Positions 1-27,611 of a stretch of DNA of 64,000 bases are shown here, piece after piece; the stretch's first letter is position 1; every line of letters starts with the position of its first letter. The translations under genes were made by a program, and so were the position numbers. The DNA is taken from the NCBI GenBank assembly GCA_964591015.1, contig CAZPXM010000002.1:4342-68341 (forward strand), given 5' to 3'. The notes under the pieces were generated by a model, which worked only from the letters and a program-made list of their open reading frames with translations, ran no database searches and had not been told where the DNA came from. Source of the DNA: an uncultured Gemmatimonadaceae bacterium (GTDB taxonomy: Bacteria; Latescibacterota; UBA2968; UBA8231).

Positions 1-326
1 GCGGCGGCCAGGGGTTCGGCGACCGGATCGAGCTGCTGGTGGGGGTGGACCGCGGCGTCGAGAGGATCACCGGTCTGTACGTCCTCGAGCAGAAGGAGAC
101 GCCCGGTCTGGGCAACAAGATCGCCGACGCGCGCCTGTTCCGGAACCAGTTCGCCGGCAAGACGGCCACGCGCTACCTGGTGGTCACCAAGCAAGGCGCC
201 AAGACCGACTACGAGATCGACGCGATCACCGGGGCGACGATCTCCTCCATGGCAGTGTGCGGGATCGTGAACGAGACGCTGGGGCGCCTGCGCGCGGAGC
301 TGCTCGCGGCGCTCCCGAAGGAGTGA
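1..326 (+). CDS. rnfG: Rnf complex subunit G (FMN-binding), C-terminal part; gene begins upstream of the window
   Basis: The ORF carries the TGATISS FMN-attachment motif typical of RnfG/NqrC and the frame is open to the window edge. It is followed directly by rnfE, rnfA and rnfB. Confidence 0.8.
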   Translation, partial: GGQGFGDRIELLVGVDRGVERITGLYVLEQKETPGLGNKIADARLFRNQFAGKTATRYLVVTKQGAKTDYEIDAITGATISSMAVCGIVNETLGRLRAELLAALPKE

Positions 327-985
327 TGGGCATGCCAGACGCACGGACTGCCGCCGCCGAGACCAGCAGCGACGGGGGGCCCAGCGCGGCGGAGCGCTTC
401 CTCAACGGCATCCTGCCCGAGAATCCGACCTACCGGCAGATGCTCGGCATGTGTCCGACGCTGGCCATCACGAACGGCATGCGCTCGGCCATGACGATGG
501 CCGGGGCGGTGCTGTTCGTGCTGGTGTGCGCCAACGTCATGGTCAGCCTGATCCGCGGGCTGCTGAAGCCCCATCTGCGCATCCTGGTGTTCACGCTCAC
601 CATCGCCGCGTTCGTGACGATCGTCGACCGGCTGCTGGCGGCCTACATGTACGCGATGAGCAAGCAGCTGGGCCCCTACGTGCCGCTGATCATCGTCAAC
701 TGCATCATCATCAGCCGGTGCGAGGTGTGTGCCGCCAAGCAGTCGGTGCCGACTGCCATCGCGGACGCCGTCGGCCAGTCGCTCGGCTTCGCCCTCGGGT
801 TGGCCAGCATCGCGACCGTCCGCGAGATCCTCGGGGCGGGCACCTGGTTCGGGCTGCCGGTGCTGCCGGCGGCGTGGCCGGCCTGGGTGATCATGGTGCT
901 GCCGCCGGGCGCCTTCATCACCCTGGGGCTGTTGATGGGCGGGGTGAACTGGTTCCTGGCGAGGCGCCAGACAGCGCGGGGTTGA
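326..985 (+). CDS. rnfE: Rnf electron transport complex subunit E (polytopic membrane protein)
   Basis: The ATG at 326 overlaps the rnfG stop (TGATGG). The product is hydrophobic and matches the RnfE/NqrD family ([20 protein letters not shown] motifs). Confidence 0.85.
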
Positions 986-989
986 GGCC

Positions 990-1679
990 ATGGAATACCT
1001 GAGCTCCATCATCCTGATCGCGATCAGCGCCGCCCTGATCAACAACTTCGTCCTCTACTACTTCGTCGGCATCTGCCCGTTCCTCGGCGTCTCGCGGCGC
1101 GTGGACATGGCGTTCGGGATGGGCTGCGCGGTCACCTTCGTGATCTCGATCGCCGCCTTCCTGAGCTGGGTGCTCACGGCCTTCGTCCTGCGCCCCGGGG
1201 CACCGCTGGCCTCCTGGGTCTGGCAGCGGCTGAGTCCTGGCTCCGAGGGCGTGGCGGACCTGAGCATCCTCAACTACCTCGTCTACATCTTCGTGATCGC
1301 GTCGTCCGTCCAGTTCGTCGAGATGTACCTGCGCAAATTCTACCCGCCGCTCTACAAGTCCTTCGGCATCTATCTGCCGCTGATCACCACCAACTGCGCG
1401 ATCCTGTTCGCCTGCCTGGAGATCATGAAGCACGTTTCGGGCGTGCCGGCGGCCGAGATGTGGGATCTGGGGCGCGCGCTGGCGCTGGCATTCTTCGGCG
1501 GCGTGGGTTTCACCCTGGCCATCGTGCTGATGGCGGGCATGCGCGAGGATCTCGAGCTGTGCGACGTGCCGCGGGCGCTGCGAGGTCCCGCGATCGCCCT
1601 CATCGTGTCCGGCATCCTGGCCATGGCGTTCATGGGCTTCACGGGCGTGGACCGCAACCTCGCCGCCTTGCTGCGGTAG
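990..1679 (+). CDS. rnfA: Rnf electron transport complex subunit A
   Basis: A 229-aa polytopic membrane protein with RnfA/NqrE-like motifs ([29 protein letters not shown]), placed between rnfE and rnfB. Confidence 0.85.
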
Positions 1680-1692
1680 GGAGACGGTAGCG

Positions 1693-2601
1693 ATGATCTC
1701 TGGGGAAGTGCTGGTGGCCGGGGGAGCTATGACGGTCCTGGCCGTGGCGGTCGCCTACGTGCTGGGCTGGGCGAACAAGACCTTCCACGTCGAGGTGGAT
1801 CCGCGCGTGGAGGCCGCCGTTGCCGCTCTTCCCGGCGCCAACTGCGGGGGCTGCGGCTATGTCGGCTGCAGCGAGTACGCCGAAGCCGTCGTGCTCAAGG
1901 GGGAACAGGTGACCAAGTGCACGGTGGGCGGCGCGAGCGTGGCCACGGCACTGGCGGGCCTCATGGGCGTGGAGGTGGGCGAGTCCTGGCCCTACCGAGC
2001 CGTGGTACACTGCGGGGCCACCACCGCGCAGCGGCTGCAGCGGCGCGAGTACCGCGGCGAGCAGAGCTGCGGTGCCGCGAACATGATCAGCGGCATCCAG
2101 GGGTGCACCTACGGCTGCCTCGGGCTGGGAGACTGCGTCGCGGCCTGCAAGTTCGGCGCCATCCACGTGTGCGACGGGCTGGCCACGGTAGACTACGAGC
2201 GTTGCACGGGCTGCGGGGCGTGTGTGCGCGCGTGCCCGCGCCACATCATCACGATGGTCCCCTTCAAGGCCGAGCGCATGCTGGTGGTGAAGTGCTCGAA
2301 CAAGGACACGGGCAAGGACGTCACCTCGGTGTGCACGGTCGGCTGCATCGGTTGCGGCATCTGCGCGCGCACGAACAAGCTGCTGCAGATCGACAGCGGC
2401 CTGGCCGGCATCGACTACGACCAGTACGACCCGGCCACCGCCGATTTCGCCACGGTCCTCAGCAAGTGCCCGCGGGAGAGCCTCGTGTGGGTGGGCAAGC
2501 CGACGCCCAGGGATCTGGCGGCGGTGGCGGACGAGAAGCTGCCCGATCGCGTCGAGGCGGATTTCAAGACGACCGTCGACGACGCCGAGTGGCGCGGCTG
2601 A
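1693..2601 (+). CDS. rnfB: Rnf complex subunit B (polyferredoxin with N-terminal membrane anchor)
   Basis: An N-terminal TM helix followed by multiple Cys clusters (CGGCGYVGC, CTYGCLGLGDCVAAC, CTGCGACVRACP, CIGCGICA), which is typical of RnfB. Confidence 0.85.
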   Translation: MISGEVLVAGGAMTVLAVAVAYVLGWANKTFHVEVDPRVEAAVAALPGANCGGCGYVGCSEYAEAVVLKGEQVTKCTVGGASVATALAGLMGVEVGESWPYRAVVHCGATTAQRLQRREYRGEQSCGAANMISGIQGCTYGCLGLGDCVAACKFGAIHVCDGLATVDYERCTGCGACVRACPRHIITMVPFKAERMLVVKCSNKDTGKDVTSVCTVGCIGCGICARTNKLLQIDSGLAGIDYDQYDPATADFATVLSKCPRESLVWVGKPTPRDLAAVADEKLPDRVEADFKTTVDDAEWRG

Positions 2602-2603
2602 GC

Positions 2604-2627
2604 GGCGCCGCGGGCCGCCGCGGCGCC
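2604..2627. terminator. GC-rich hairpin (10-bp perfect stem GGCGCCGCGG/CCGCGGCGCC, 4-nt loop) between convergent rnfB and the TonB receptor gene; candidate bidirectional terminator
   Basis: A perfect inverted repeat sits immediately after the rnfB stop, in a convergent intergenic gap. There is no U-tract, which is common in high-GC genomes. Confidence 0.35.
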
Positions 2628-2686
2628 TGCCGTGGCCCGCGCGGCCGGGGCGGTGTCCGGCAGGCCGCGCTCGGCCGGTCGGCGGC

Positions 2687-5038
2687 TCAGCGTTCGACCG
2701 ACCAGGTCACGAACACGCTCCGGCCCGGGGCGGTCAGGGGGGTGCCGCGCGACGTGGCCAGATGATCTCGGTAGGCCGCGTCCAGCGCGTTGCGCACGCC
2801 GGCCGTCAGGCGGTGCGCAGCGCCGCCCCACGCGATCCGCTCGAGGCCGGCGCTCACGCCGAGCGTCAGGTGGCCGCCGGTGGTGCTCTCGCCGGCAGCC
2901 ACGCGCCGCTGCGGCGCCGCCAGCTCGAGGTCGGCCGCCAGCCACCGGCGGTTGCCGCAGCGGGCTCCCAGCGAGCCGGTCAGCGGGGGCATCGCGGGCA
3001 GGGGCGTGTTCTCCTTTTCGTCGGTGCCGCGCACGGACGCGGCCGAGGCGGACAGCAGGACGTCCGACCGTGGCGTGTACCCGAGGCCGGCCTCCCACCC
3101 CCACAGCAGGGCTTCGCCGGCATTGGCCTTGCGCAGCGCCGGTCTGCCCTCGTACAGCGCCGGACGCTCGATGACCATGTCGAGGATCCGGTTGGCGAAC
3201 ACCTGGCCGGTGGCGCGCAGGCGATCGGACTGGGCGCTCAGCCCGAGTTCGGCGAACAGACCGTCTTCGCTGCGCAGCGCCGGATCGCCCCAGCGGACCG
3301 TGCTGCCCAGGTCGACGAACAGGAAGCGTTCCTCCAGGCTGGGGGCACGGAACGAGCGCGCCAGGTTCGCGTACCCCTCCAGATGCGTTCCGAACCGGTA
3401 GGACAGCCGCACCTGCCCGCTCAGCGAGTAGTCGGTCTCTGTCGCGGCGTCCCAGAGCACCGCCTCCGTGGCAGGCACGTAGGTCACGTAGGTCTTCTCG
3501 CCGGTGATCCGGATCCGGTCGATCCGCACGCCGGCGACGAGCGCAGCGCGGGCCGAGAGGGCCAGCTCGTCTTCGAGGTACAGCCCGAAGGGCAGGAAGG
3601 CGCTGTTGGGCAGCGAGCGGTCCTCGACGGCGGTCGTGCTGGTGCGCAGGACCGTGCTGTCGGGGGCCAGCACGGCGATCTCGGTCACGCGCCTGCGGTG
3701 CGAGCGCAGCCGCTTCTCCCAGGCATCGACCCCGAAGACGAGGGTATGCCTGCCTGTCCTGACGGTGTTGTTCCAGCGCACGCCGCGCGCGTCGTGGTCG
3801 GCGCTGGGCTGGATGAGCAGGGGGCGGACGCGCCGGAAGGGAGCCGTGGCGCTGGCGGGCAGATAGCTGACCGTGTGGGGGACGACCTCGACGCGGCGAT
3901 CGATCGTCTGTACGAACAGCCGCAGCTCCGACTGGCGCCAGGGGGCCTGCGGCCGCGTCCGGCTCCAGGTGATCTCGGCGAGCGTTCTGCGCGTGGCCGG
4001 ATAGGTGGCCGTCGCGGTGGCGGGGAATGCCGCGCCGCCGCCGGGGATGCCGACGTCGCGGGCCGCGAACCACTGGCAGCGCACCTCGGCCGTCTGGGTT
4101 TCGGTCAGGCGCACGCCAGCGTGGACGTGGCTCTGCCGGTCGGCGAACTGGCTGTTGGCCACGCGGCGGCCCGCTCCGTCCCGGTAGGAGCCATAGTCGC
4201 GGTAGGCCTGCGATCCCAGCAGGAAGAACCGCGGCGCGCCGACACTCGCGCGCGCGTAGCCGCTCAACCCGTGCGCGGCCGATTCGTAGCTGGCGGTGGC
4301 GGCGCTCGTCCAGCTGACCTGGGGGGCGAACCGGCCGCTGTGAGGAATCGCGTTGACGATGCCGCCCGTCGACCCGGTGCCGTAGAGGACGGACACCGGC
4401 CCCTTGAGCACTTCGAGGCGCTCCACGTCCGCGGGCGGCACCGTGCCGTACTGGGCGGCCAGTTCGGTGGTCGTCGAGACCCGGTTGCCGTTGACGAGGA
4501 AGACCACGTGCTCGCGGCTCAGGCCCCGGATATGGGGACGAGCGCTCCAGGGCATGTCGGTGCCCAGCCAGACCCCCGGCAGCGCGCTGGCGGCCTCGGC
4601 CAGACTGAGCAGCGGCCGCTCCGTGAGGTCGGCCGCGTCCAGTGCCCCCGCCGTGCCGCCCAGCGCGAGGCCGGCTGCCGCGCGGCCGCGGGCGGTGACA
4701 ATGACCTCGGGCATGGGCAACAGGTCGGGCTCGAGCCGCACGGCGAGGTCCAGCGAGTCGCCAGGCGCGACGGCCAGGTCCAGCGTCTCGGTGCGGTAGC
4801 CCACGTGCGAGAAGGTGGCCTGCTGGCGTCCAGCCGGGACGGCGCCCAGCGCGAATCTGCCCTGCGCATCGGTCACGGTGAAGAGGGGGAGCGGAGTGAC
4901 GAGCACGTGCACGTCCGGCAGGGGCTCGCCGGTGTCCTTGTCCACGACCCATCCGGAGACGGCGCCGGAGGTCCCGGCAGCCGCCTGGCCTGGCGAGAGG
5001 ATACCCGCCACGCAGAAGACGAGGATGCAGATCAGCAA
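2687..5038 (-). CDS. TonB-dependent outer-membrane receptor with N-terminal carboxypeptidase-regulatory-like domain
   Basis: The product has a signal peptide (LLICILVFCVAGILSPGQAAAG), a CarbopepD_reg-like start (GAVSGWVVDKDTGEPLPDVHV), a plug region (LEVLKGPVSVLYGTGSTGGIVN) and a long beta-barrel with a C-terminal aromatic. The start was moved to an in-frame TTG at 5038 so the signal peptide is N-terminal. The annotated long ORF (to 5170) overlaps the upstream gene. Confidence 0.75.
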   Translation of the reverse strand: MLICILVFCVAGILSPGQAAAGTSGAVSGWVVDKDTGEPLPDVHVLVTPLPLFTVTDAQGRFALGAVPAGRQQATFSHVGYRTETLDLAVAPGDSLDLAVRLEPDLLPMPEVIVTARGRAAAGLALGGTAGALDAADLTERPLLSLAEAASALPGVWLGTDMPWSARPHIRGLSREHVVFLVNGNRVSTTTELAAQYGTVPPADVERLEVLKGPVSVLYGTGSTGGIVNAIPHSGRFAPQVSWTSAATASYESAAHGLSGYARASVGAPRFFLLGSQAYRDYGSYRDGAGRRVANSQFADRQSHVHAGVRLTETQTAEVRCQWFAARDVGIPGGGAAFPATATATYPATRRTLAEITWSRTRPQAPWRQSELRLFVQTIDRRVEVVPHTVSYLPASATAPFRRVRPLLIQPSADHDARGVRWNNTVRTGRHTLVFGVDAWEKRLRSHRRRVTEIAVLAPDSTVLRTSTTAVEDRSLPNSAFLPFGLYLEDELALSARAALVAGVRIDRIRITGEKTYVTYVPATEAVLWDAATETDYSLSGQVRLSYRFGTHLEGYANLARSFRAPSLEERFLFVDLGSTVRWGDPALRSEDGLFAELGLSAQSDRLRATGQVFANRILDMVIERPALYEGRPALRKANAGEALLWGWEAGLGYTPRSDVLLSASAASVRGTDEKENTPLPAMPPLTGSLGARCGNRRWLAADLELAAPQRRVAAGESTTGGHLTLGVSAGLERIAWGGAAHRLTAGVRNALDAAYRDHLATSRGTPLTAPGRSVFVTWSVER

Positions 5039-6612
5039 GCGGGCCCTCCTCGCCGCCGGCAGTCCGGCGCCGCCGCCGGCGCGGCCCCCGAGCGCCGGGT
5101 CGCTCCGCCGCGCTCCCAGCCGCGCCCGGCCCAGGTCCAGGCGAGCTGCGCGGCAGCGGGCGGCCCGCACAGCCGATTCTCCAGCAGGCTGGCGCCCCAG
5201 ATGACGGCCAGCGTTACCGCCAGGTTCGCGACGACGTAGTAGTGCAGCGCCAGCGGTTCCACCGCGACGCAGATGTACGTGCTGGCGAGTGCGCCCAGGA
5301 GCGCGCCGGCCAGCGCGCTGCGCCGGTTGGCCCGCCGCGACAACAACCCCGCGAGGAACAGCGCCAGCAGCGGTCCGCCCATGGCGTTGATCACCCGGTT
5401 GGCGACCTCGAATACCGTGCCCAGGCGGCCGACGAACAGCGCCATCCCGGTGGCTGCCGCGCCGAACGCCAGCACCGCGCCGCGGCTGACCCGCTCCTCG
5501 GCTGGCGTGTCCGGCGCGCCGCCCAGCAGCCGTCGGTAGAAGTCCGCCACCACGGCGGCGGCGCAGGCGTTCATGCCGGAATCGGCACTGGACATCGTCG
5601 CGGCCAGCAGACCGGCCAGGACCAGCCCCGGAACGCCGGCCGGCAGCGACCGCACGAAACTGCTGAAGGACAGCATGGGCACCTGCCGGGCCTGCGGGTC
5701 CAGAGCCCTGACGGCGTGGCCGTGGATGGCGAAGCCGAGCAGCGCCAGCAGCAGCAGCGCGCCCATCGAACTGGCCACGTGGAGGCCGAAGCCCGTGCGG
5801 GCGTCGCGCAGCGTCCGCGCGGCCAGGTAGCGCTGGGTGAGCATCTGGTCAGCGCCGTAGCGGGCCAGGAAGGCGACGAACGTGCCCACCCAGCAACTCC
5901 ACAGCGTGATGCGCAGCGTCGGGTCGAGGGCGAATACCTCTGGCGCGAACGGGTGGAACGGACGCGCGAGGCCGGCGTCCAGCCCTTCGTGCAGCAGGCC
6001 GAGCATGCCTGCCGGATGGCGCGTGGCGGCCACGGCGATGGCGAGCAGGATGCTGCCGACGACGACGACGAACTGCGCGACGTCGGTGTACATGACGGCG
6101 CGCATGCCCCCCACCAGGGTGTAGGCGGTGGCCACGGCCCCGCTCAGGAGGACCAGGAGGCGATGGTCCAGCCCGCCCATCAGGCTCAGCGCCTTGCTCG
6201 GCACGTGGATGAGCAGGGCCATCCAGAGCAGGCGCCAGAAGATGAACAGCGCGCTCGCCGCCGTGCGCACCCGCACGTCGAACCGGTGCTCGAGGTACTC
6301 GTAGATGCTGTGGACCCCCATCGCCCGGTAGAGGGGCATGACCAGGCGAGTCACCGGCCAGGCCACCACGGCGAAGACCGGCAGGCACAGCAGCACATAG
6401 CAGCCGTACTGGGACACCTCGGCGGAGAAGCCGGCGTAGTTGACGGCGCTGAACGCCGTGGCCACGATGGACAGGCCCACGGGCAGCCAGTGCATGCTGC
6501 GGCCGGCGAGGAAATAGGCGGCGAACCCGTGGCTCTGCCGGCGCTGCCGCAGCCCCAGGACGAGCACGCCGAGGAGGTAACCCCAGAACGCGACGTGGTC
6601 CCAGACGCTCAT
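5032..6612 (-). CDS. Sodium:solute symporter family (SSF) transporter
   Basis: About 13 predicted TM segments with an SSF-like N-terminus (MSVWDHVAFWGYLLGVLVLGL...FLAGRSM). The upstream part of the 951-aa ORF lies out of frame inside the neighbouring kinase gene, so the start was set at the ATG at 6612. Confidence 0.7.
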   Translation of the reverse strand: MSVWDHVAFWGYLLGVLVLGLRQRRQSHGFAAYFLAGRSMHWLPVGLSIVATAFSAVNYAGFSAEVSQYGCYVLLCLPVFAVVAWPVTRLVMPLYRAMGVHSIYEYLEHRFDVRVRTAASALFIFWRLLWMALLIHVPSKALSLMGGLDHRLLVLLSGAVATAYTLVGGMRAVMYTDVAQFVVVVGSILLAIAVAATRHPAGMLGLLHEGLDAGLARPFHPFAPEVFALDPTLRITLWSCWVGTFVAFLARYGADQMLTQRYLAARTLRDARTGFGLHVASSMGALLLLALLGFAIHGHAVRALDPQARQVPMLSFSSFVRSLPAGVPGLVLAGLLAATMSSADSGMNACAAAVVADFYRRLLGGAPDTPAEERVSRGAVLAFGAAATGMALFVGRLGTVFEVANRVINAMGGPLLALFLAGLLSRRANRRSALAGALLGALASTYICVAVEPLALHYYVVANLAVTLAVIWGASLLENRLCGPPAAAQLAWTWAGRGWERGGATRRSGAAPAAAPDCRRRGGPAC

Positions 6613-6641
6613 CGGTCCCCGGCTCTGGCGCAGCGGCGGCT

Positions 6642-7796
6642 TCAGGCAGGCGCCGGCGCCGACGCCTGCCCCGGCGCCTTCCGCAGCGTCACGGTGAACG
6701 TGCTGCCCACTTCCGGTTCGCTGTGGACGGTGATCGAGCCGTCGTACAACGCCACCAGCTTCTTCACGATGGACAGCCCCAGGCCGCTGCCAAGCACGGC
6801 GGCGGTCTTCTCGTTCTTGATGCGGACGAACTCGCCGAAGAGCTTGCCGACCTCGGCGGGCGTCATGCCGATGCCGGTGTCCGCCACCGCGATCTGGACG
6901 TGCTGGTCCTGATCGGCAACGCGGACGGTCACCGAGCCGCCGCTGCGGTTGTACTTGACGGCATTGGAGATCAGGTTGTTGAGGATGATCTCGAGTTCGC
7001 CGCGGTCGGCGATGAGCTGCGCCTGCGCCGGCAGGTCGGTGGCCAGCGAGAGCTGGCGTCTGGCCGCCTCCGGCCCGGCGGTCTCGACTGCCGTGGCCAC
7101 CACCTCGCACAGGTCCACCGGCGCCAGCGTCCGCTGCTTGTTGCCCGATTCGATGCGAGTCAGGTCCAGCAAGTCGAAGATCAGCTTGCGCATGCCCTCG
7201 AGGCGCAGGAGGCTGCGGGCCACGATCGCGTCGTATCGGGCGATGTCCTCTCCCAGCGCCCTCTTCTCGATCAGGCGCAGATAGCCCTCCACGGCGGCCA
7301 GCGGCGCCTTCAGCTCGTGGCCGAGCACGCGGATGAACTCGAAGCGGATCTGCCGGCGCTCCTCGGCCAGACGCACGGCCTGGCGGTGGGCCAGCAGGTG
7401 GTGCGCCGCGCGCTGGACCGTGACGCGCAGCTCTTCGGGCGTGAACGGTTTGACCAGGAAGTCGAAGGCGCCGCGCTTGGTGGCCGTGATGACCGTCTGC
7501 AGCGAGCTGTAGGCCGAGATCATGACGGTCAGCACCTGCGCGCCGCGCTCGACGAGCCTGCTCTGCACCTCCAGCCCCGAGATGCCGGGAAGCTTGTAGT
7601 CGAGCAGGAGGATGTCGGGCAGCTCGGCCTCGGTGCGCGCGAGCGCCTCCTCGCCGCTCTCGGCCGTGGCCACCGCGAAGTCCACGGTGGCCTGCAGGTC
7701 GGGGAACTCGGCCACGTGCCGGCGCAGCGCGCGCTCGGTTCCCCGGCGCATGCCGGGCTCGTCGTCGCAGACCAGGATCCGGAGAGTCTCTGGCAT
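6642..7796 (-). CDS. Hybrid two-component protein: N-terminal receiver (REC) followed by HisKA and HATPase_c kinase core
   Basis: The receiver (MPETLRILVCDDEPG...LLLDYKLPG...KPF) precedes an H-box (HELKAPL) and N/G-boxes (NLISNAVKYN, DTGIGM, GSGLGLSIV). The start is the ATG at 7796, 24 nt after the upstream RR. Confidence 0.8.
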   Translation of the reverse strand: MPETLRILVCDDEPGMRRGTERALRRHVAEFPDLQATVDFAVATAESGEEALARTEAELPDILLLDYKLPGISGLEVQSRLVERGAQVLTVMISAYSSLQTVITATKRGAFDFLVKPFTPEELRVTVQRAAHHLLAHRQAVRLAEERRQIRFEFIRVLGHELKAPLAAVEGYLRLIEKRALGEDIARYDAIVARSLLRLEGMRKLIFDLLDLTRIESGNKQRTLAPVDLCEVVATAVETAGPEAARRQLSLATDLPAQAQLIADRGELEIILNNLISNAVKYNRSGGSVTVRVADQDQHVQIAVADTGIGMTPAEVGKLFGEFVRIKNEKTAAVLGSGLGLSIVKKLVALYDGSITVHSEPEVGSTFTVTLRKAPGQASAPAPA

Positions 7797-7819
7797 GGCC
7801 AGTCTCCGCGCGCAGGCGC

Positions 7820-8211
7820 TCAGTGCAGCAGGCGCCGGAGCTGCGCCAGCAGGGTTTCGAACCGCACCGGCTTGTCGAGGACCACATCGGCCTTGACCCA
7901 CGCTCTCTCCTCGGCGGTCACGGCATCGAAGTCGATCCCGGTCTCGCTGGCGACGGCCGTCAGCAGGATGACGGGCAGCTCCGGGCTCTGGCGCTTGAGG
8001 TGGTGCGCGAGCGCGAAGCCGGAGTCGTGCTCCTCCATCATCAGGTCGATCACGGCGGCATCCGGTCGGGCGCTCGCCGCCACCTGGCGGGCCTGCTTGT
8101 CGGAGTGCGCGGTGACCACCCGGTAGCCGGCGGCCTCGAGCTGGACCTGGAGCTCCAGCACCAGGTCCAGGTCATCGTCCACGACGAGTATCGTCTGCGC
8201 GTTCGGACTCA

Positions 8212-8212
<1 letters not shown>
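7820..8212 (-). CDS. Stand-alone response-regulator receiver domain (CheY-like, no output domain)
   Basis: A 130-aa REC (ILVVDDD...IDLMMEEHD...KP). Its start ATG overlaps the stop of the upstream HydS-like kinase (ATGA). Confidence 0.8.
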
Positions 8213-10218
<2,006 letters not shown>

Positions 10219-17263: not shown

Positions 17264-17273
17264 GGGCCGAGCC

Positions 17274-18013: not shown

Positions 18014-18559
18014 ATGGCCAAACCGAGAGTCGCGACGACGTCGCTGGCGGGGTGCTTCGGCTGCCACATGTCGCTGCTGGACATCGACGACCGCATCCTC
18101 GAGCTGGTCGAGCTGGTCGAGTTCGACCGGTCGCCGATCGACGACATCAAACACATCGCCCAGCGCTGCGCCATCGGCCTGGTGGAGGGCGGCTGCGCCA
18201 ACGAGGAGAACGTGGCGGTGCTGCGCGAGTTCCGCGCCAACTGCGACGTGCTGGTCTCCGTCGGCGACTGTGCCATCATGGGCGGGGTCCCGGCCCTGCG
18301 GAACAACATCCCCCTGCAGGAGTGCCTCGCCGAGGCCTACCTCAAGGGCCCGACGGTGTACAATCCGAGCGGCAGGATTCCGGACAGCCCGGACATACCT
18401 CTGCTCCTGAACCGGGTCTACCCCTGCCACGAGGTGGTGAGGATCGACTACCACCTGCCCGGTTGCCCACCGCCGGCGGACGCCTTGTGGGCGGCGCTGG
18501 TGGCGCTGCTCGAGGGCAAGCCGCTGGCACTGCCATACGAACTCATCAAGTACGATTGA
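18014..18559 (+). CDS. hoxY: [NiFe] hydrogenase small subunit (group 3 type)
   Basis: Diagnostic motifs: SLAGCFGCHMSLLD, GDCAIMGG and PGCPP. The product is 182 aa. Confidence 0.85.
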   Translation: MAKPRVATTSLAGCFGCHMSLLDIDDRILELVELVEFDRSPIDDIKHIAQRCAIGLVEGGCANEENVAVLREFRANCDVLVSVGDCAIMGGVPALRNNIPLQECLAEAYLKGPTVYNPSGRIPDSPDIPLLLNRVYPCHEVVRIDYHLPGCPPPADALWAALVALLEGKPLALPYELIKYD

Positions 18560-20031: not shown

Positions 20032-20552
20032 CCAGCGACCCGGTGCTGTTGCTGTGCTGGGGCAACCCGGCGCGCCAGGACGATGGTCTCGGGATCGCCT
20101 TTGCCGAGGCCTGCAGGCAGGCAGACCTGCCGGGGGTGGTGCTGGAAGTCGACTACCAGCCGAACGTCGAACAGGCGGCCGAACTGGCGCGCTGCCGGTA
20201 CGCGGTGTGCGTCGATGCGGCGGTCTCGGGGCGGGAGCCGTTCGGCTTCTGGCCGCTGAGGCCCCGGGGCGCAGCGATGACGTTCAGCACGCATCGGGTG
20301 GAGCCCGAATTCCTGCTGGCGATGGCGGCCAGCTGTTTCGGCCGCGCGCCGGAGGCCTACAGCCTGGGCATCCGCGGCTATCGCTTCGGTCGCTTCGAGG
20401 AGGGGCTGTCGGCGCGGGCGCGCGACAATCTGGCGGCCGCACTCGCCTTCCTGTTGCCGGTCATCGAGACCCGGAGCTTCGCTCAGGCGGCTGCAGAGCT
20501 GCAGGCGGCCGCCCCGGATGGAGGGGAGAGATGGAAGACGGGAAGCACGTGA
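20028..20552 (+). CDS. hoxW: Hydrogenase maturation endopeptidase (HoxW/HycI family)
   Basis: The GTG start overlaps the hoxH stop (GTGA). The N-terminus LLLCWGNPARQDDGLGIAFAEA resembles the HycI/HoxW GNxLxxDDGxG motif. Size is about 174 aa. Confidence 0.7.
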   Translation: MTSDPVLLLCWGNPARQDDGLGIAFAEACRQADLPGVVLEVDYQPNVEQAAELARCRYAVCVDAAVSGREPFGFWPLRPRGAAMTFSTHRVEPEFLLAMAASCFGRAPEAYSLGIRGYRFGRFEEGLSARARDNLAAALAFLLPVIETRSFAQAAAELQAAAPDGGERWKTGST

Positions 20553-20908
20553 TTCTGTGCGTCGACGATGACCCGGACATCGTGGAGTACCTCAAGGTCG
20601 TGCTGGAGGCCAGCGGCTACGCGGTGAAGACGGCCGCCAGCGCCGAGGAGGCCATGCGCCGGTACCGGGAGGTGAACCCCGACGCGCTCATCGTCGACCT
20701 GATGATGGAAGAGATCGACGCAGGCACCGGCCTGGTAACCGAGCTCAAGGCCGCGGGCAACCGGGCCCCGGTGTTCATGCTCAGTTCGGTGGGCGACAAT
20801 CTCAGCCGCACCATCGACACGGCCGGGCTGGGGCTGGCGGGGGTCCTGCAGAAACCGCTCGACAGCGACGTGCTGCTGTCACTGCTGCGGGCAAGGCTCC
20901 AGCGCTGA
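20531..20908 (+). CDS. Stand-alone response-regulator receiver domain (paralogue of the 7820-8212 receiver)
   Basis: A 125-aa REC (ILCVDDD...VDLMMEEID...KP) that shares the DLMMEE motif with the other stand-alone receiver. Confidence 0.8.
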   Translation: MEDGKHVILCVDDDPDIVEYLKVVLEASGYAVKTAASAEEAMRRYREVNPDALIVDLMMEEIDAGTGLVTELKAAGNRAPVFMLSSVGDNLSRTIDTAGLGLAGVLQKPLDSDVLLSLLRARLQR

Positions 20909-22815
20909 TGCCCGGCAACCACGGCGGGATTGCCGGTGGGCCCGGCACCGGCACGGCGGCGGCAATCGAGGAGCCGACCTCCTGCGCCTGGCCAGGACTG
21001 ATTCCCCTGGAGCGCGAGCTGCGGGCCCGGCTGGCATGGTTCGTGCGGCTGCGCTGGGCCGCGGCCGCGGGTATCGCCCTCTGGGCGTGGGGGACGGCCC
21101 GGGCGGCCGCGGGTCAGCTCGCCGCGGGACCGATGTACGCGATCGCCGCGGCGGTGGCCGTGTACAACGTCGCCTTTCTCTTCGCGACGCGCCGGGTCGC
21201 CGGCCTCGGCCCCGGCAGCCGTGCCTATCGCCGCGTCATCTACGCGCAGATGGGCCTGGACTGGGTCGCCCTGGCCGGCCTCGTGCACTACGCCGGCGGC
21301 ATCCAGAGCCCGGTTCCGCTCGCCTTCACCTTCCACGTGATCATCGGCGCGATCCTCCTCTCGCGCGCTGCCTGCTACGTGCAGGCGGGAGCGGCGGCGG
21401 TGATGCTCGGCTTGCTGGTGGGCGTCGAACGTCTGGGATGGTGGCCGCCGGTGCAGGCCGACGTGCTGGCGGGTTCGGGGCCCACCTCGGCTGCCGCCTG
21501 CCTGTTCCGCTGGGCCGTGCTGGCCGGTTTCTTCGCCGTCGTCGCCTATCTCACCACTTCGATCACGGTGCCGGTGCGCCGGAACGAGGAGGCGCTGTTC
21601 GCGTCCGAGCGCGCCCTGGAGCGCTCCTACCGGGAGATGGAGGCGCTGTACGAGGTGGGGCGGGCGGTGAATGCGACGCTGGAACTCGACCAGGTGCTGG
21701 GCAAGATCGCGGAGAAAGGAGCCCAGCTCCTGGGCGTGAAGGCCTGTTCGATCCGGCTGCTCGAAGAGGATGGGCAGCACCTCCGGATCGGTGCCGCGTA
21801 CGGGCTCAGCGAACGCTACCTGGCCAAGGGACGCGTCGCCGTGGACCGCAGCGGGATCGATGCCGAGGCACTGCGCGGCAGCACGGTCCAGATCCGCGAC
21901 GCCGCGCGCGATCCACGCTTTCAGTATGCCCGCGAGGCGCAGGAGGAAGGGTTGCGGGCCGTGCTGTGCGTGCCGCTGCAGGCCAAGGGACGAGCCATGG
22001 GCTGCATGCGCGTGTATGCGGCCGAGGAGCGCGACTTCACGCGCAGCGAGGCCAACTTGCTGCGCAACCTGGCCAACCTGGGTGCGGCCGCGATCGAGAA
22101 CGCGCGCGCCTACGAGGAGCTGCGGGCCCTGAGCGAGGAACGGGCCTGGTTCGCGCGGGTGACCCATCATCAGTTGCGGGCGCCCCTGGCGGCGGTCCAG
22201 AGCATGCTGGAGGGGCTGCGCTATGCCGGACCGCTGACGCCCAAGCAGGCGGAGTTCGTCGAGCGCTGCCGGCGGCGCGTCGACGAGCTGCTCTGGATGG
22301 TCCGCGATCTTCTGGAGCTGGCCGCGGCGCAGCGGCCGCTGGCGGGGCGCAGCGCGGTGCCCGTCCGCCTGGCCGAGTGCCTGGCCGGCGCGCTGGCCAC
22401 GGCCATGGCGCGGGCGGACAGCAAGCAGATCGCCCTCGACGTCGCGCTGCCCGAAGGGGCGGCGGCGATGGCCGAGGCGCGCGACGTCGAGCTGATCTTC
22501 AGCAACCTGCTGGACAACGCCATCAAGTACACGCCGGCGGGGGGAAGAGTGCGGTTCGCGGTCCACCGCGAGGAGCACGAACTGGTGGCCTCGGTGGAGG
22601 ATACGGGCATCGGCATCGCCAGCGCCGACCGGGAGCGGGTCTTCCGGGGCTTCTTCAGGACGGCGGCTGCCAGGGCTACCGGGGAGGCCGGAACCGGCAT
22701 GGGGCTGTCCATCGTGGCGCGCCTGGTGGAGCGCTGGGGAGGGCACATCGAGCTGGACAGCGAGCCTGGCAGAGGCAGCCGCTTCACGGTACGACTGCCC
22801 GCTGCTGGCCCGTGA
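20908..22815 (+). CDS. Membrane sensor histidine kinase with polytopic N-terminal domain, GAF domain, HisKA and HATPase_c
   Basis: About six hydrophobic segments at the N-terminus are followed by a GAF-like region and an H-box (THHQLRAPL). The N/G-boxes are NLLDNAIKYT, DTGIGI and GTGMGLSIV. The ATG overlaps the upstream receiver stop. Confidence 0.75.
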   Translation: MPGNHGGIAGGPGTGTAAAIEEPTSCAWPGLIPLERELRARLAWFVRLRWAAAAGIALWAWGTARAAAGQLAAGPMYAIAAAVAVYNVAFLFATRRVAGLGPGSRAYRRVIYAQMGLDWVALAGLVHYAGGIQSPVPLAFTFHVIIGAILLSRAACYVQAGAAAVMLGLLVGVERLGWWPPVQADVLAGSGPTSAAACLFRWAVLAGFFAVVAYLTTSITVPVRRNEEALFASERALERSYREMEALYEVGRAVNATLELDQVLGKIAEKGAQLLGVKACSIRLLEEDGQHLRIGAAYGLSERYLAKGRVAVDRSGIDAEALRGSTVQIRDAARDPRFQYAREAQEEGLRAVLCVPLQAKGRAMGCMRVYAAEERDFTRSEANLLRNLANLGAAAIENARAYEELRALSEERAWFARVTHHQLRAPLAAVQSMLEGLRYAGPLTPKQAEFVERCRRRVDELLWMVRDLLELAAAQRPLAGRSAVPVRLAECLAGALATAMARADSKQIALDVALPEGAAAMAEARDVELIFSNLLDNAIKYTPAGGRVRFAVHREEHELVASVEDTGIGIASADRERVFRGFFRTAAARATGEAGTGMGLSIVARLVERWGGHIELDSEPGRGSRFTVRLPAAGP

Positions 22816-22834
22816 CGCGGGAGCGCCGTTCCCG

Positions 22835-25147
22835 ATGACGGGTCAGGGCCCGGAGTGCCGGCGGTTGCGGGCCGAGATCAGCGGCGCGGTGCAGGGCGTC
22901 GGCTTTCGGCCCTTCGTCTACCGTCTGGCGCGAGAGCTGCAGCTGGCCGGCTGGGTGCGCAACTCGATGCAGGGCGTCACCGTGGAGGTGGAGGGCCCGG
23001 CAGACCGGCTGGAGACGTTCCTGGAGCGGCTAAGCCGCGAACGCCCGCCGCGGGCCGCCATCTACGGCATGGAGACGGTGGTTCTGGATCCATGCGGGCT
23101 GGCGGGTTTCCAGATCCAGGCCAGTCGGGACGACGCCAGGCCCGCTGCCGTCGTGCTGCCCGACATCGCCACCTGCGCCGAGTGCTGCCGGGAGCTCTTC
23201 TCGCCCGCGGACCGGCGCTACCGGTACCCCTTCACCAACTGCACGAACTGCGGGCCGCGGTTCACGATCATCCGGCGCCTGCCGTACGACCGGCCCAACA
23301 CCACCATGGCCGGTTTCGGCATGTGCGCCGACTGCCTGGCCGAGTACCACGATCCTGCGAACCGGCGCTTCCACGCCCAGCCGAACGCCTGCCCGGCATG
23401 CGGGCCGCAGGTGCAGTTGTGGGATGACGCGGGGCGCGTGCTGGCGGTAGGCGAGGCAGCGTTGGCCGGGGCCGAGGCGGCGCTGCGCGACGGGCGCGTC
23501 GTGGCCGTCAAGGGCCTCGGCGGGTTCCATCTGATGGTGGATGCGCGCCAGGGCGCGGCCGTGGCGCGGCTGCGCGCCGCCAAGAACCGGGAGACCAAGC
23601 CCTTCGCCCTGATGTACCCGGATCTGGAGGCGGTGCGGCGGCACTGCCGCGTGTCGCGGCTGGAGGAGCGGCTGCTGACCGCGCCGGAGGCTCCCATCGT
23701 CCTGCTCGAGCGCCACGGCTGCAGCGGCGAGCTGGCCCCCGAAGTGGCGCCCGACAGCCCCCTGCTGGGCGTGCTGCTCCCGTACACGCCCCTCCATCAT
23801 CTGCTGCTGGCCGACCTCGCGATGCCGGTGGTGGCCACCAGCGGCAACCGCGCCGACGAGCCCATCTGCACGGCAGCCGAGGAGGCGCTGATCCGCCTGC
23901 GCGGCATCGCCACGCTGTTCCTGGTTCACGACCGGCCGATCGCGCGTCACGTGGACGACTCGGTCGTGCGGGTGGTGGCGGGCCGGGAGCTGGTGCTGCG
24001 GCGGGCCCGCGGGTATGCGCCGCTGCCGGTCGGTCGGGCCGCGCCCGGTCCGGACGTGGTCGCCGTGGGGGCCCAGCTGAAGAACGCCGTCTGCGTGGTA
24101 GCCGGGGGCCGCAACGTCATGGGCCAGCACATCGGCGATCTGGACACGCCCGCCGCGCTGGCCGCCCTGCGGCGCAGCATCGAGGACCTGTGCGGGCTGT
24201 ACGCGGTCAAGGCGGAGATCGTCGCCGCCGACCTGCACCCGGACTATGCCTCGACCGTCCTGGCGCGAACCCTGGCCGCGGCCGGCGCGCCGCTGGTGTC
24301 GGTGCAGCATCATCATGCGCACGTGGCCGCCTGCATGGCGGAGAACGAGCTGGATGGCGAGGTGCTGGGGGTGGCCTGGGACGGCATGGGTCTGGGTCTG
24401 GACGGGACGATCTGGGGCGGCGAGTTCCTGGCCGCCACCCGCCGGGAATGCACGCGCGTGGCGCATCTGCGCCCGTTTCGCCTGCCGGGGAGCGAGCAGG
24501 CGATCCGCGAGCCGCGGCGGACAGCCCTCGGACTGCTCTACGAGTTGTGGGGTGAGGCGGCTCTGGACCGTCTGGATCTGGCCCCTCTGCGCGCGTTCAG
24601 CCCCGCCGAGCGGCGCGTCCTGGGACAGATGCTGCGGCGCCGCGTCAACTCCCCGGTCACCACCAGCGCCGGACGTCTGTTCGACGCGGTGGCGTCCCTG
24701 TGCGACCTCTGCCAGCGGCTGGGGCACGAGGGGCAGGCGGCCATGGCGCTGGAGCACCGGCTGGACGGCGACGAGGCCGGCGCCTATCCTACCGCGCTGA
24801 GCGCCGGCGAGGGAGGAGCACTGGTGCTCGACTGGGAGCCCATGGTGCGCGAGCTGGTGCGAGACGTGACGGCCGGAGTGCCGGCCGGCAGGGTTTCGGC
24901 GCGCTTCCACAATGGCCTGGCGGCGGGCATCGTGTCCGTGTGCGTGCGGGCGGGCCGCGAGCGGGTGGTGCTGACCGGCGGCTGCCTGCAGAATCGGCAT
25001 CTGGTCGAACGAAGTGTCGCCCTGCTGCGCGCCGCCGGTCTGCGTCCCTACTGGCACCAGCGAGTGCCGCCCAACGACGGCGGTATCGCCCTGGGCCAGG
25101 CAGCCATCGCTCGCAGCCGAGCGGCGGCGGCTGCCGGCGCCGTGTGA
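22835..25147 (+). CDS. hypF: [NiFe] hydrogenase maturation carbamoyltransferase HypF
   Basis: It has an acylphosphatase-like N-terminus, two Zn fingers (CAECCRE...CTNCGPRF, CADCLAEY...CPACGP), a YrdC-like domain and a Kae1-like domain. Size is 770 aa. Confidence 0.9.
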   Translation: MTGQGPECRRLRAEISGAVQGVGFRPFVYRLARELQLAGWVRNSMQGVTVEVEGPADRLETFLERLSRERPPRAAIYGMETVVLDPCGLAGFQIQASRDDARPAAVVLPDIATCAECCRELFSPADRRYRYPFTNCTNCGPRFTIIRRLPYDRPNTTMAGFGMCADCLAEYHDPANRRFHAQPNACPACGPQVQLWDDAGRVLAVGEAALAGAEAALRDGRVVAVKGLGGFHLMVDARQGAAVARLRAAKNRETKPFALMYPDLEAVRRHCRVSRLEERLLTAPEAPIVLLERHGCSGELAPEVAPDSPLLGVLLPYTPLHHLLLADLAMPVVATSGNRADEPICTAAEEALIRLRGIATLFLVHDRPIARHVDDSVVRVVAGRELVLRRARGYAPLPVGRAAPGPDVVAVGAQLKNAVCVVAGGRNVMGQHIGDLDTPAALAALRRSIEDLCGLYAVKAEIVAADLHPDYASTVLARTLAAAGAPLVSVQHHHAHVAACMAENELDGEVLGVAWDGMGLGLDGTIWGGEFLAATRRECTRVAHLRPFRLPGSEQAIREPRRTALGLLYELWGEAALDRLDLAPLRAFSPAERRVLGQMLRRRVNSPVTTSAGRLFDAVASLCDLCQRLGHEGQAAMALEHRLDGDEAGAYPTALSAGEGGALVLDWEPMVRELVRDVTAGVPAGRVSARFHNGLAAGIVSVCVRAGRERVVLTGGCLQNRHLVERSVALLRAAGLRPYWHQRVPPNDGGIALGQAAIARSRAAAAAGAV

Positions 25148-25165
25148 CCCGCGAGGAGACTGCGC

Positions 25166-25456
25166 ATGTGCCTGGCGGTGCCTGGGAGACTGGTGGAGAT
25201 CCGCGCGAGCGACGACCCCATGGGCCGGTCCGGCAAGGTGAGTTTCGGCGGCGTGCTCAAGGAGGTCAGCCTGGCCTATCTGCCGGAGGCGCGCGTCGGC
25301 GACTACGTGACCGTGCACGTGGGCCTCGCGCTCAGCATCGTCGACCCCGAGGATGCTGCCCTGGTGTTCGCGCTTCTCCGGGAAGCCGGCGAGGCGTCGC
25401 CGCCTGCTGAAGCTGGCGCGGCTGGCGCGGACAGCGACGAAGGCGCGCGAGGGTGA
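25166..25456 (+). CDS. hypC: Hydrogenase maturation factor HypC (HupF/HypC family)
   Basis: The N-terminal [12 protein letters not shown] is the conserved MC(L/I)(A/G)(I/V)P start. Size is 96 aa. Confidence 0.8.
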
Positions 25457-26559
25457 AGTACGTCGACGAGTACCGCGACGCCGCCAGGGTCCGCCAGATG
25501 GCGGCGCTGCTCGGGCGGGTGGCGCGGCGGCCGTGGGTGCTGATGGAAGTCTGCGGCGGGCAGACCCACGCGATCGTGCGGTACGGCCTGGACGAGCTGC
25601 TGCCCGCCACGCTGGAGCTGGTGCACGGACCCGGCTGCCCGGTGTGCGTCACCTCGGTGGACTTGCTGGACCAGGCGCTGGCGATCGCGGCCCGCCCCGA
25701 GGTCACGCTGTGCACGTTCGGCGACATGATGCGCGTGCCGGGCAGCGGTGCGGACCTGTACGCGGTCAGAGCCGCCGGCGGCGACGTGCGCACCGTGTAT
25801 TCGCCCCTCGAGGCCCTCGAGCTGGCGCGCAGCCAACGCGACCGCGAGGTGGTCTTCTTCGCCGTCGGCTTCGAGACGACGGCGCCGGCGACCGCGCTGG
25901 CCGTCTGCCAGGCGGCGCGCGAGGGACTGGCCAACTTCTCCGTCCTGGCGGCGCACGTGCGGGTGCCGCCGGCGCTGGAGGCCATCCTGGCCGCTGCCGA
26001 CTGCCGGGTCCAGGGCTTGCTCGCCGCGGGGCACGTCTGCATGGTGATGGGCTATGCGGAGTACGAGCCCCTGGCGGCCCGCTACGGAGTTCCCATCGTG
26101 GTCACCGGATTCGAGCCGCTGGACATCGTCGAGGGCGTGTACCTGCTCGTCCGGCAGCTCGAGTCGGGGAGCGTGGGGGTGCAGAACCAGTACCGCCGCA
26201 CGGTGCGCCGCGAGGGCAACGCGCCGGCCCGCCGTCTGCTCGACACGGTGTTCACGCCGGTCGCCCGCGACTGGCGCGGCATCGGCTCGATCCCGGCCAG
26301 CGGCCTGGCTCTGCGGCCCGAATACGCGGCCTTCGACGCTGCGGCGCGGTTCCCGGCACTGCCTCCGGCGGCGCGCGCGGCGCCGGCCTGCCTGAGCGGC
26401 CGGATCCTGCAGGGGCGGCTCAAGCCGCCGCAGTGCCCGGCCTTCGGGAGCCGCTGCACGCCAGAGCATCCGCTCGGCGCGACCATGGTCTCGTCCGAGG
26501 GCGCCTGCGCCGCCTACTACCGCTACCGGCGGGCTGCAGCCCAGGAGGCCGGCCCATGA
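25453..26559 (+). CDS. hypD: Hydrogenase maturation factor HypD
   Basis: It has the [15 protein letters not shown] and FEPLDIV motifs. The GTG start overlaps the hypC stop. Confidence 0.85.
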
Positions 26560-27611
26560 GCACGCCGTCCTCGGCAGGCCCCGCCTGCCCGCTGCCGCTG
26601 GGCGAGTACCCGTGGGTGGTGCTGGCCCACGGCGGCGGCGGCCGGCTGATGGCCCAGCTCATCGAACGGGTGTTCCTGCCGGCGTTCGCCAACGCTCAGC
26701 TGGACCGGCGGCACGACGGGGCCGTGGTGCGGCTGGCATCCACGCGGGTGGCGTTCACCACGGACTCCTACGTCGTCCAGCCGCTGTTCTTTCCCGGCGG
26801 CGACATCGGTTCGCTGGCGGTGTACGGCACGGTGAACGACCTGGCGATGTGCGGCGCGCGACCGCAGTACCTCAGTTGCGGGATGATCCTGGAGGAGGGT
26901 CTGGAGCTGCAGGTCGTCGAGCGGATCGCCGCCTCCATGCAGCGGGCGGCCCGGCGCGCGGGCGTGCAGCTGGTCACCGGCGATACCAAGGTGGTGGAGC
27001 GCGGCAAGGGCGACGGGCTCTTCGTCAACACGGCCGGCATCGGCGTGGTGGAGAGCCAGATCGACATCGGTCCGGATCAGGTGCGCCCCGGCGATGTCGT
27101 GCTGCTCAGCGGCGATATCGGCCGGCACGGGGTGGCCATCCTCGCGGCACGGGAGTCGCTCGAGTTCGAAGCGACCGTGTGCAGCGACTGCGCGCCGCTG
27201 GCCGAGCCGGTCATGGCCCTGCTGGCGGCCGGCGTCGAGGTGCACTGCTTGCGCGACCTGACCCGGGGTGGGCTGGCCAGCGCGGCCGTCGAGATCGCGG
27301 CGCGCGCCGGCGTGGGCATCGAGCTGTGCGAGCGCGAGATCCCCGTGCTCGAGGCGGTGCGGGCCTCCTGCGAGATCCTCGGTCTGGACCCCCTCTACGT
27401 GGCCAACGAGGGCCGCTTCGTGGCCATCGTTCCCCAGGTCCAGGCGGAGCAAGCGCTGCAGGTCCTGCGCGCGCACGCGGAGACCGCGCAGGCGGTGGCG
27501 ATCGGCCGGACGACGGCGGCCGCCGCCGGTCAGGTGGCGATGGAGAGCGCGGTGGGCGGTCACCGGCTGGTCGATCGACTCAGCGGCGAGCAGCTTCCCC
27601 GCATCTGTTGA
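26556..27611 (+). CDS. hypE: Hydrogenase maturation factor HypE (carbamoyl dehydratase)
   Basis: An AIR-synthase-like fold ([29 protein letters not shown]) ending in PRIC, which is the PR(I/V)C C-terminus typical of HypE. Confidence 0.85.

Follow-up and report, generated by a model that had tools for sequence, protein, structure and literature searches.

A lineage-conserved hydrogenase island around rex in an uncultured Gemmatimonadaceae bacterium, with Rex control probably lost or rewired

The window considered here, 64,000 nucleotides of DNA from an uncultured Gemmatimonadaceae bacterium (contig CAZPXM010000002.1, positions 4,342 to 68,341), carries at its left end an island for hydrogen and redox metabolism. 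Three modules can be distinguished: Rnf; a minus-strand array, rex-hydC-hydB-hydA-hydS::kinase-REC-REC::kinase, that encodes a bifurcating-type [FeFe] hydrogenase and a putative sensory hydrogenase fused to a histidine kinase, extended here by a symporter and a TonB-dependent receptor; and a plus-strand array, hoxFUYHW-REC-membrane GAF kinase-hypFCDE, that encodes an NAD-reducing [NiFe] hydrogenase and part of its maturation machinery. Rnf joins ferredoxin, NAD, and an ion gradient, and would share the ferredoxin pool with HydABC. The reading to which we give somewhat better than even chances holds that this three-module island is conserved in its lineage, that Rex ancestrally controlled both hydrogenases, and that Rex control has been lost or rewired in the present genome. 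To judge from relatives, the second and third modules would ancestrally diverge from one control region with two or more Rex boxes, so that a low NADH/NAD+ ratio would repress both hydrogenases together. In this genome the boxes are gone, and the first-helix region of Rex appears degenerate and is accompanied by an insertion; local control would then be left to two phosphorelays.

Because the window contains approximately 70% G+C, reading frames were picked by codon-position (third-position) GC, and then scanned with Pfam and NCBIfam. The island reads as follows.

3–326, plus strand: rnfG, 3' part (Pfam FMN_bind)
326–985, plus strand: rnfE (Pfam Rnf-Nqr)
990–1679, plus strand: rnfA (Pfam Rnf-Nqr)
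1693–2601, plus strand: rnfB (Pfam FeS and Fer4)
2687–5038, minus strand: TonB-dependent receptor, final gene of the minus-strand array (Pfam CarboxypepD_reg, Plug, and beta-barrel)
5032–6612, minus strand: sodium:solute symporter (Pfam SSF, E = 7e-37), 29 nt after the REC::kinase gene
6642–7796, minus strand: REC-HisKA-HATPase kinase (Pfam)
7820–8212, minus strand: REC-only receiver, hyd side (Pfam Response_reg); its start overlaps the hydS::kinase stop codon by 1 nt
8212–10218, minus strand: HydS-type sensory [FeFe] hydrogenase::histidine kinase (Pfam Fer4, Fe_hyd_lg_C, FeS, HisKA, and HATPase_c)
10260–11981, minus strand: hydA (NF040763)
11994–13955, minus strand: hydB (Pfam, NuoF core and two C-terminal Fer4)
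13939–14430, minus strand: hydC (Pfam, NuoE-like)
14444–15199, minus strand: rex (NF003995; product of 251 aa), with an alternative start at ATG 15097 (217 aa)
15200–15442: divergent rex-hoxF intergenic gap, without a Rex operator
15443–17263, plus strand: hoxF, a NuoE-NuoF fusion (Pfam)
17274–17984, plus strand: hoxU (Pfam)
18014–18559, plus strand: hoxY (Pfam; product of 181 aa)
18586–20031, plus strand: hoxH (Pfam)
20028–20552, plus strand: hoxW endopeptidase (TIGR00072)
20531–20908, plus strand: REC-only receiver, hox side (Pfam)
20908–22815, plus strand: membrane GAF-HisKA-HATPase kinase (Pfam)
22835–25147, plus strand: hypF (Pfam HypF domains)
25166–25456, plus strand: hypC (Pfam HupF_HypC)
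25453–26559, plus strand: hypD (Pfam HypD)
26556–27611, plus strand: hypE (Pfam AIRS/AIRS_C)

Each gene named in an initial annotation of this DNA was found in its place by these scans, but two had been omitted, namely the symporter and the TonB-dependent receptor, which extend the minus-strand array and separate its kinases from rnfB. The receptor gene begins with TTG at 5038, preceded by GGAGG, and overlaps the symporter stop codon; all intergenic gaps in this array are 41 nt or less. The distance of 13 nt given earlier between rex and hydC is exact. That of 243 bp between rex and hoxF holds for a rex start at ATG 15199, but becomes 345 bp with the start at 15097 that gene callers chose in three other assemblies. 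The gene first described as a hybrid kinase (6642–7796) does encode a kinase with a receiver, which lies at the N-terminus. Five other metagenome contigs, 99.9% identical, display the same gene order, which excludes an assembly artefact. The Rnf set in the window comprises RnfG', RnfE, RnfA, and RnfB, with rnfC and rnfD lying beyond the left edge; hydEFG, hypA, and hypB were not found among the open reading frames scanned in the 64 kb. Scans of both arrays for sigma-70 promoters (none found) and for intrinsic terminators (sites mostly within genes or on the opposite strand) were uninformative.

Conservation of the island was evaluated in relatives found through HoxH homologs (75–84% identity), drawn from metagenome-assembled genomes (MAGs) named as Gemmatimonadetes, Latescibacterota, Sedimentisphaerales, and Acidobacteriota. 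Comparison of locus contexts distinguished seven relatives.

L092: hydA-hydB (1092 aa)-hydC-rex, divergent from hoxFUYHW-REC-GAF kinase-hypFCDE
L099 (Latescibacterota, 71% GC): layout of L092, with an extra Pyr_redox/rhodanese gene between the GAF kinase gene and hypF
L094/95/97: SSF-REC::kinase-HydS::kinase-rex (782–6248), divergent from hoxFUYHW-REC-GAF kinase-hypFCDE; no hydCBA
L096: rex alone, divergent from hox
L098: rnfCDGEAB followed by a rex remnant of 80 aa (together 849–6417), the remnant divergent from hox-hyp
L100 (Acidobacteriota): hoxFUYHW-REC-GAF kinase only
L101: hoxFUYHW-REC only

The initial annotation had proposed a coherent H2/redox island, to be doubted should its clusters prove dispersed in related genomes. 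They are not dispersed: rex and hoxF diverge in five of the seven relatives (L092, L094/95/97, L096, L098, and L099; HoxH 78–84% identical), which argues that the arrangement is not accidental. In all seven, the gene after hoxW encodes a receiver; in six, that of the GAF kinase comes next. Adjacency to Rnf recurs once, in L098, where a complete rnfCDGEAB occupies the same position; the symporter of L094/95/97 likewise lies where the window has its own. (The HoxH cluster of L094/95/97 is named from a Gemmatimonadetes MAG, and has an [FeFe]-type sensor beside a [NiFe] hydrogenase only. Between L098 and L094, the hox-operon and Hyp proteins are 85–96% identical.)

Evidence for shared control comes from the Rex box, sought with the consensus TTGTGAA-N4-TTCACAA and up to three mismatches unless stated otherwise. 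In L092, L094/95/97, and L096, the sole such boxes in each 14–21 kb locus lie in the rex-hoxF gap, two per locus, together with weaker ones nearer hoxF. Since relatives with a normal Rex have their boxes only in this gap, shared Rex control is well supported, by sequence comparison, as the ancestral state of the lineage. The window is different. Its entire 64 kb contains no box (0.19 sites expected) and no match to the 10-bp core at one mismatch or fewer; nor does GTGA-N6-TCAC occur at one mismatch or fewer between 14950 and 15450. The initial annotation had noticed no canonical box in the 243-bp gap, a negative that these scans uphold and extend to the full window. Its proposal of probable Rex control over the two divergent operons agrees with the relatives, but is unsupported in the window itself, given the missing operator and the aberrant Rex N-terminus. 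A search for inverted repeats in the gap recovered only short GC-rich palindromes within the rex 5' region, and upstream of hoxF the relatives align only over the ~25 bp before the ATG. In L098, whose rex remnant is C-terminal, the gap also lacks a Rex box: an independent instance of rex decay together with operator loss.

The Rex protein of the window is canonical from residue ~73 on, through helix α2, the recognition helix, the wing, and the Rossmann domain with its GIGNLG (GxGxxG) motif, and it scores 178.7 bits against NF003995 (cutoff 126). By contrast, its first ~72 residues are aberrant, comprising a possible vestige of helix α1 and an Ala/Gly/Arg-rich insertion of ~35 residues that is seen in no other Rex among the homologs retrieved. 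A hidden Markov model of 46 cassette orthologs matches at 251 bits over positions 27–207 only; its first 26 positions, corresponding to helix α1 (ERLxxYRRLL), have no match in any of six frames. Solved Rex chains align only from residue ~28–32, and PF06971 reaches 22.7 bits (cutoff 27) over profile positions 26–48 only. Among the matches listed, the window's own Rex cluster is the only one in the top ~40 without PF06971, and the closest relative (74% identical) has a canonical α1. The corresponding DNA (14960–15199) is without the codon-position GC signature: 0.66/0.81/0.78, versus 0.73/0.45/0.89 in the remainder of rex. Helix α1 contacts DNA, packs against α9' of the partner subunit, and transmits NADH binding (PMC8836258). 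With the boxes gone, and the α1 region degenerate and bearing an insertion, this locus has probably either lost its control by Rex or seen it rewired, a conclusion in which we place moderate confidence. (Two simpler notions were revised along the way: that rex is merely 5'-truncated and has no α1, which was softened once alignment and AlphaFold2 placed a degenerate α1-like helix at residues 13–30; and that locus L019 encodes an α1-less Rex, which proved to be a start-codon artefact.)

Several observations weigh against this conclusion. In a 75-sequence alignment, the near-invariant R, Y, R, R, and L of α1 correspond to R20, W22, R23, R24, and L26 of the window protein, and AlphaFold2 predicts a helix at residues 13–30 (predicted local distance difference test score, pLDDT, 76–89), followed by ~40 low-confidence residues unique to this population. 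A helix so aligned with α1 suggests that the DNA-binding domain may still fold. (When tested by position-specific scoring matrix against all six window frames, the vestige is a weak match: z = 3.4, outside the top 10.) Of the two candidate starts, ATG 15199 has the better Shine-Dalgarno-like sequence; the retained Rex sequence has diverged no further than that of relatives (62–64% versus 64–66% identity); and the recognition helix is unchanged. The L099 genome, with 71% GC and a canonical Rex, has only 4-mismatch sites in its gap, including the perfect palindrome TCGTGACGTTCGTCACGA, so operators in GC-rich genomes may be harder to recognize. Finally, other copies of rex or other regulators may exist elsewhere in the genome.

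Several of these observations, together with conservation of the wing and of the divergent rex/hoxF layout, point to the most serious alternative, which we nonetheless doubt: that Rex is fully functional and co-represses both arrays through a diverged or GC-shifted operator that consensus scans have missed. The predicted helix, the normal rate at which the retained sequence evolves, and the degraded boxes of L099 would all be accommodated. But the L099 sites retain the core, whereas the window gap is without GTGA-N6-TCAC even at one mismatch; the recognition helix is identical to that of relatives using canonical boxes, so new specificity is not expected; and both the N-terminal insertion, found in no other Rex retrieved, and the failure of PF06971 speak against this reading. 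We therefore retain loss or rewiring of Rex control as the preferred reading for this genome.

The enzymes themselves belong to familiar families. HydABC is soundly placed, by sequence, in the trimeric bifurcating-type family (HydDB A3), a subunit make-up that alone is no proof of the presumed activity. HydA scores 821 bits against NF040763 (cutoff 765), and its best solved relatives are the bifurcating HydA1 proteins of T. kivui (8A6T) and A. woodii (7Q4V). Its motifs are L1, TSCSPGW; L2, MPCVAKKFE; and L3, EVMTCPGGC. L1 departs from the textbook TSCCPxW (codon TCG, 11085–11087). The variant is shared by HydA1 of A. woodii (7Q4V), an active enzyme, and by 44 of 54 close cassette orthologs; it is thus characteristic of the clade, and neither an error nor an inactivating change. 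HydC is NuoE-like (Pfam 2Fe-2S_thioredx). HydB (653 aa) contains Complex1_51K, NADH_4Fe-4S, and, at residues 600–650, two Fer4 domains (Pfam); these two C-terminal [4Fe-4S] domains are absent from HoxF. PMC11406978 links the HydB C-terminal clusters to bifurcation. (In L092 (1481–4759) and L099 (2014–5289), HydB is 1091–1092 aa long, with a C-terminal GltD-like extension, Fer4_20 plus Pyr_redox_2.)

Hox is soundly assigned, again from its sequence, to the NAD-reducing soluble [NiFe] hydrogenases of the group 3d type, with activity presumed; the directions in which the two hydrogenases run are likewise presumptive. The best solved relative of both HoxH (5XF9_D, 555 bits) and HoxF (5XF9_A, 406 bits) is the NAD-reducing hydrogenase 5XF9. 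HoxH contains the Ni-binding cysteine motifs RLCGICPVSH and DPCLSCATH, and Pfam PF27537 (HoxH) is recorded on a protein identical to it. HoxW scores 60 against TIGR00072 (cutoff 47.45).

Beside the [FeFe] enzyme stands its putative sensor. HydS::kinase comprises, in order, 2x[4Fe-4S], the H-domain, a Cx2Cx4Cx16C motif, a predicted coiled coil, and HisKA-HATPase. Judged by criteria for sensory HydS motifs (PMC8163306), the H-domain retains all four cluster cysteines but has altered catalytic motifs: L1 is ATTCP (Cys299 to Thr, with loss of the proton-relay Cys); L2 is GPCLAKRRE (Met353 to Gly, as in TmHydS); and L3 is EVLCCDGC (Met497 to Leu, as in TamHydS). The same pattern is found across 80 orthologs. 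The C-terminal iron-sulfur motif is an exact Cx2Cx4Cx16C (CGACGYPTCVEHATAVHMGLAETEMC; Pfam PF04060). Pfam detects no PAS domain in the protein, in which HisKA-HATPase comes directly afterward, with the H-box AHEINNPL preceding the ATPase domain. Because the iron-sulfur domain runs through the coiled coil straight into HisKA-HATPase, sensor and kinase form one polypeptide. Its features place the protein with the kinase-fused subtype of PMC11406978. Presumably, H2 would reduce the H-cluster; the accessory clusters would then shift redox state; and kinase activity would change as a result.

The initial annotation gave each hydrogenase its own two-component module, and gene order is indeed conserved on both sides, with neither module containing a DNA-binding output. 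Phospho-acceptors are kept in all five kinases and receivers (H-boxes; receiver Asp, Thr(Ser), and Lys), which are putative partners in phosphotransfer. In REC::kinase the H-box reads HELKAPL, and the phospho-Asp motif is likewise present. The N-terminal ~225 residues of the GAF kinase include several hydrophobic segments, and its relatives show a weak 6TM_PilS match; a metagenome-contig scan with this kinase returned only generic kinase-core matches (23–36% identity). The stand-alone receivers of the two sides are paralogous (44% identity over 88 residues), and both have DLMMEExDxG after the phospho-Asp. By Pfam, no output domain exists in either module: the two stand-alone receivers consist of REC alone, and the remaining REC forms part of a kinase. 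Rex is the only DNA-binding protein inside the conserved cassette; the sole DNA-binding response regulator in the window, of the OmpR type (33387–34103), has its own HAMP kinase.

We consider it improbable, yet worth stating, that the HydS::kinase relay, with Rex, also governs the [NiFe] Hox operon as an [FeFe]-type H2 sensor. The idea is kept open because L094/95/97 have rex-hydS::kinase-REC::kinase beside hox without hydCBA, and because the hyd-side and hox-side receivers are paralogs. If true, this would constitute cross-family H2 sensing, from an [FeFe] sensor to a [NiFe] enzyme, through a multi-receiver relay without a dedicated DNA-binding regulator.

The kinase gene also bears on a further alternative. 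A tandem duplication of CATG (ACATG to ACATGCATG) at ~8814, directly after the phospho-His box, frameshifts the kinase in three independent contigs of the same population (L081, L082, and L089). This, with the lost boxes, the odd Rex N-terminus, and the parallel in L098 (rex reduced to 80 aa, and boxes lost), might signify that the regulatory layer is decaying in the population, such that rex is no more than a leader open reading frame of the hyd operon, without function, and the relay of HydS::kinase is disappearing. However, the window allele is intact and full-length, and Rex retains all of its Rossmann and winged helix-turn-helix signature residues; moreover, all three contigs end ~200 bp past the duplication, which may therefore be an assembly bubble. 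We give general decay little credence.

Outside the immediate lineage, the [FeFe] half can be followed on its own. A genome-collection scan with HydS::kinase yielded 162 confirmed loci, of which 80 were kept as full-length relatives (48–60% identity). Their MAG labels come from more than ten phyla, and include Anaerolineales, Planctomycetota, Bacteroidota, Marinimicrobia, KSB1, Fermentibacteria, Calditrichota, Elusimicrobia, and Myxococcota. Genes were counted by tblastn of window proteins against the kept loci: hydA lies directly upstream of hydS::kinase in 70 of 76; REC and REC::kinase come downstream of it in 68 of 73; and the cassette begins with rex-hydCBA in 30 of 61. Where rex is at the head, a Rex box lies within 200 bp of its start in 23 of 32 loci, against a background of 0.016 per 220 bp. 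Bacteroidota-type loci place rex after REC::kinase, and have boxes upstream of hydC in 10 of 14. (The Rex-like boxes in these cassettes lie 57–126 bp upstream of hydC. A second, divergent HydS-like gene is present upstream of hydC in L046, L048, L049, L052–L059, L070, L073, L076, and L079. In four distant loci (L019, L021, L031, and L047), weak homologs of the TonB-dependent receptor, 24–28% identical, follow REC::kinase; this recurrence may be chance in receptor-rich FCB-group genomes.)

Published accounts describe much of this cassette. HydDB defines the putative sensory group C (PMC5037454). A study of groundwater Elusimicrobia (10.1101/765248) notes a group C hydrogenase joined to the ATPase domain of a kinase, adjoining a trimeric group A enzyme and with Rex nearby. 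The 2024 Hydrogenedentota study (PMC11406978) presents BfuABC clusters with BfuT, a group C3 sensor with a histidine-kinase domain ("sub-type V"); these include clusters in Caldithrix abyssi, and in Bacteroidota with a second upstream copy, and the cluster is described as horizontally mobile. The [FeFe] half of the island is therefore a copy of a widespread, published cassette, rex-hydCBA-hydS::kinase-REC-REC::kinase. Term searches of the BfuT, Elusimicrobia, and HydDB papers, covering parts of each, turned up no mention of the two following receiver genes or of a box-fronted, rex-headed seven-gene unit.

In none of the 80 distant cassette loci does hox adjoin the cassette, and any hox, hyp, or rnf match occurs in only one. 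The absence of such matches from the other 79, the Hox unit without rex or hyd in L100 and L101, and the differing modules upstream of rex among relatives are what might be expected of an accidental juxtaposition of separately acquired modules, without shared regulation and conserved through recent common ancestry only; this we regard as very unlikely, since the rex/hoxF divergence is kept across relatives that differ by 16–22% in HoxH and by 38–41% in the GAF kinase, that bear different phylum labels (Latescibacterota and Gemmatimonadetes), and whose Rex boxes lie in the shared gap, including within 170–255 bp of hoxF.

The rest of the window contains large secreted proteins, an aldehyde:ferredoxin oxidoreductase, and the OmpR-type regulator with its HAMP kinase (together at 37837–44467, plus strand; 53155–55134, plus strand; and 31693–34103, minus strand). 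The large secreted proteins bear FlgD_ig or CHU_C C-terminal domains (type IX secretion). Such domains agree with a source in the FCB group, to which the bacterium probably belongs, near Latescibacterota or Gemmatimonadota. At 58819–61470 (minus strand), an 883-aa protein fuses rhodanese, TusA, and DsrE_2 domains to a pyridine nucleotide-disulfide oxidoreductase.

All parts of the island are of known kinds; what is new is the arrangement of known modules. New features are the lineage-conserved pairing of the [FeFe] cassette with a Hox-Hyp unit around rex; the presence, across phyla, of a receiver and a membrane GAF kinase within the hox operon; and, in this genome, an altered Rex accompanied by the loss of Rex operators. 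The island is a useful comparative system more than a surprising one. Should the layout be functional, it shows how an uncultured organism, anaerobic or facultatively so, coordinates two soluble NAD(H)-drawing hydrogenases, one of which also uses ferredoxin, while Rnf connects the NAD(H) and ferredoxin pools. A natural series runs through the relatives (Rex intact, boxes present; Rex remnant, boxes absent; Rex altered, boxes absent), and the [FeFe] enzyme is present in some and absent in others, so that two questions become directly testable: whether Rex controls Hox, and what the kinase-fused HydS targets. To our knowledge, no H2-sensing [FeFe] hydrogenase has yet been experimentally tied to a signaling output; the one-polypeptide sensor-kinase is the simplest candidate for making that connection.

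Comparison with known systems locates these features. Rex regulons of anaerobes with hydrogenase genes among their members (Caldicellulosiruptor bescii, PMC6391272; Rex-DNA structure from T. maritima, PMC8836258) share with the relatives canonical boxes, here before rex-hyd and in the rex/hox gap, whereas the window is without a box and has a non-canonical Rex N-terminus. The putative sensory enzymes TmHydS and TamHydS (PMC8163306, PMC10055695) have in common with HydS::kinase the N-terminal 2x[4Fe-4S], the four cluster cysteines, the loss of Cys299, and the C-terminal [4Fe-4S] motif. TmHydS, of the M2f type, contains a PAS domain; in the window protein, the iron-sulfur domain leads instead through the coiled coil to HisKA-HATPase.

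BfuABC/HydABC clusters with a kinase-fused sensor share the hydC-hydB-hydA-hydS::kinase order with Rex nearby, as well as the lost proton-relay Cys, Met353 to Gly, Cx2Cx4Cx16C, and a kinase in place of PAS. Relative to the BfuABC/BfuT clusters, the window cassette has no Rex box and an altered Rex N-terminus, adds the symporter and the TonB-dependent receptor, and faces Hox-Hyp. Finally, HoxFUYH of Hydrogenophilus thermoluteolus (5XF9, group 3d) resembles the window enzyme in its NuoE-NuoF fusion HoxF, its HoxU, and its short HoxY; in the N- and C-terminal cysteine motifs and cleavable tail of HoxH; and in the HoxW protease. Unlike operons of the 5XF9 type, that of the window has two genes inserted ahead of hypFCDE, for a single-domain receiver and for a membrane GAF histidine kinase, and in this lineage hox is divergently paired with rex.

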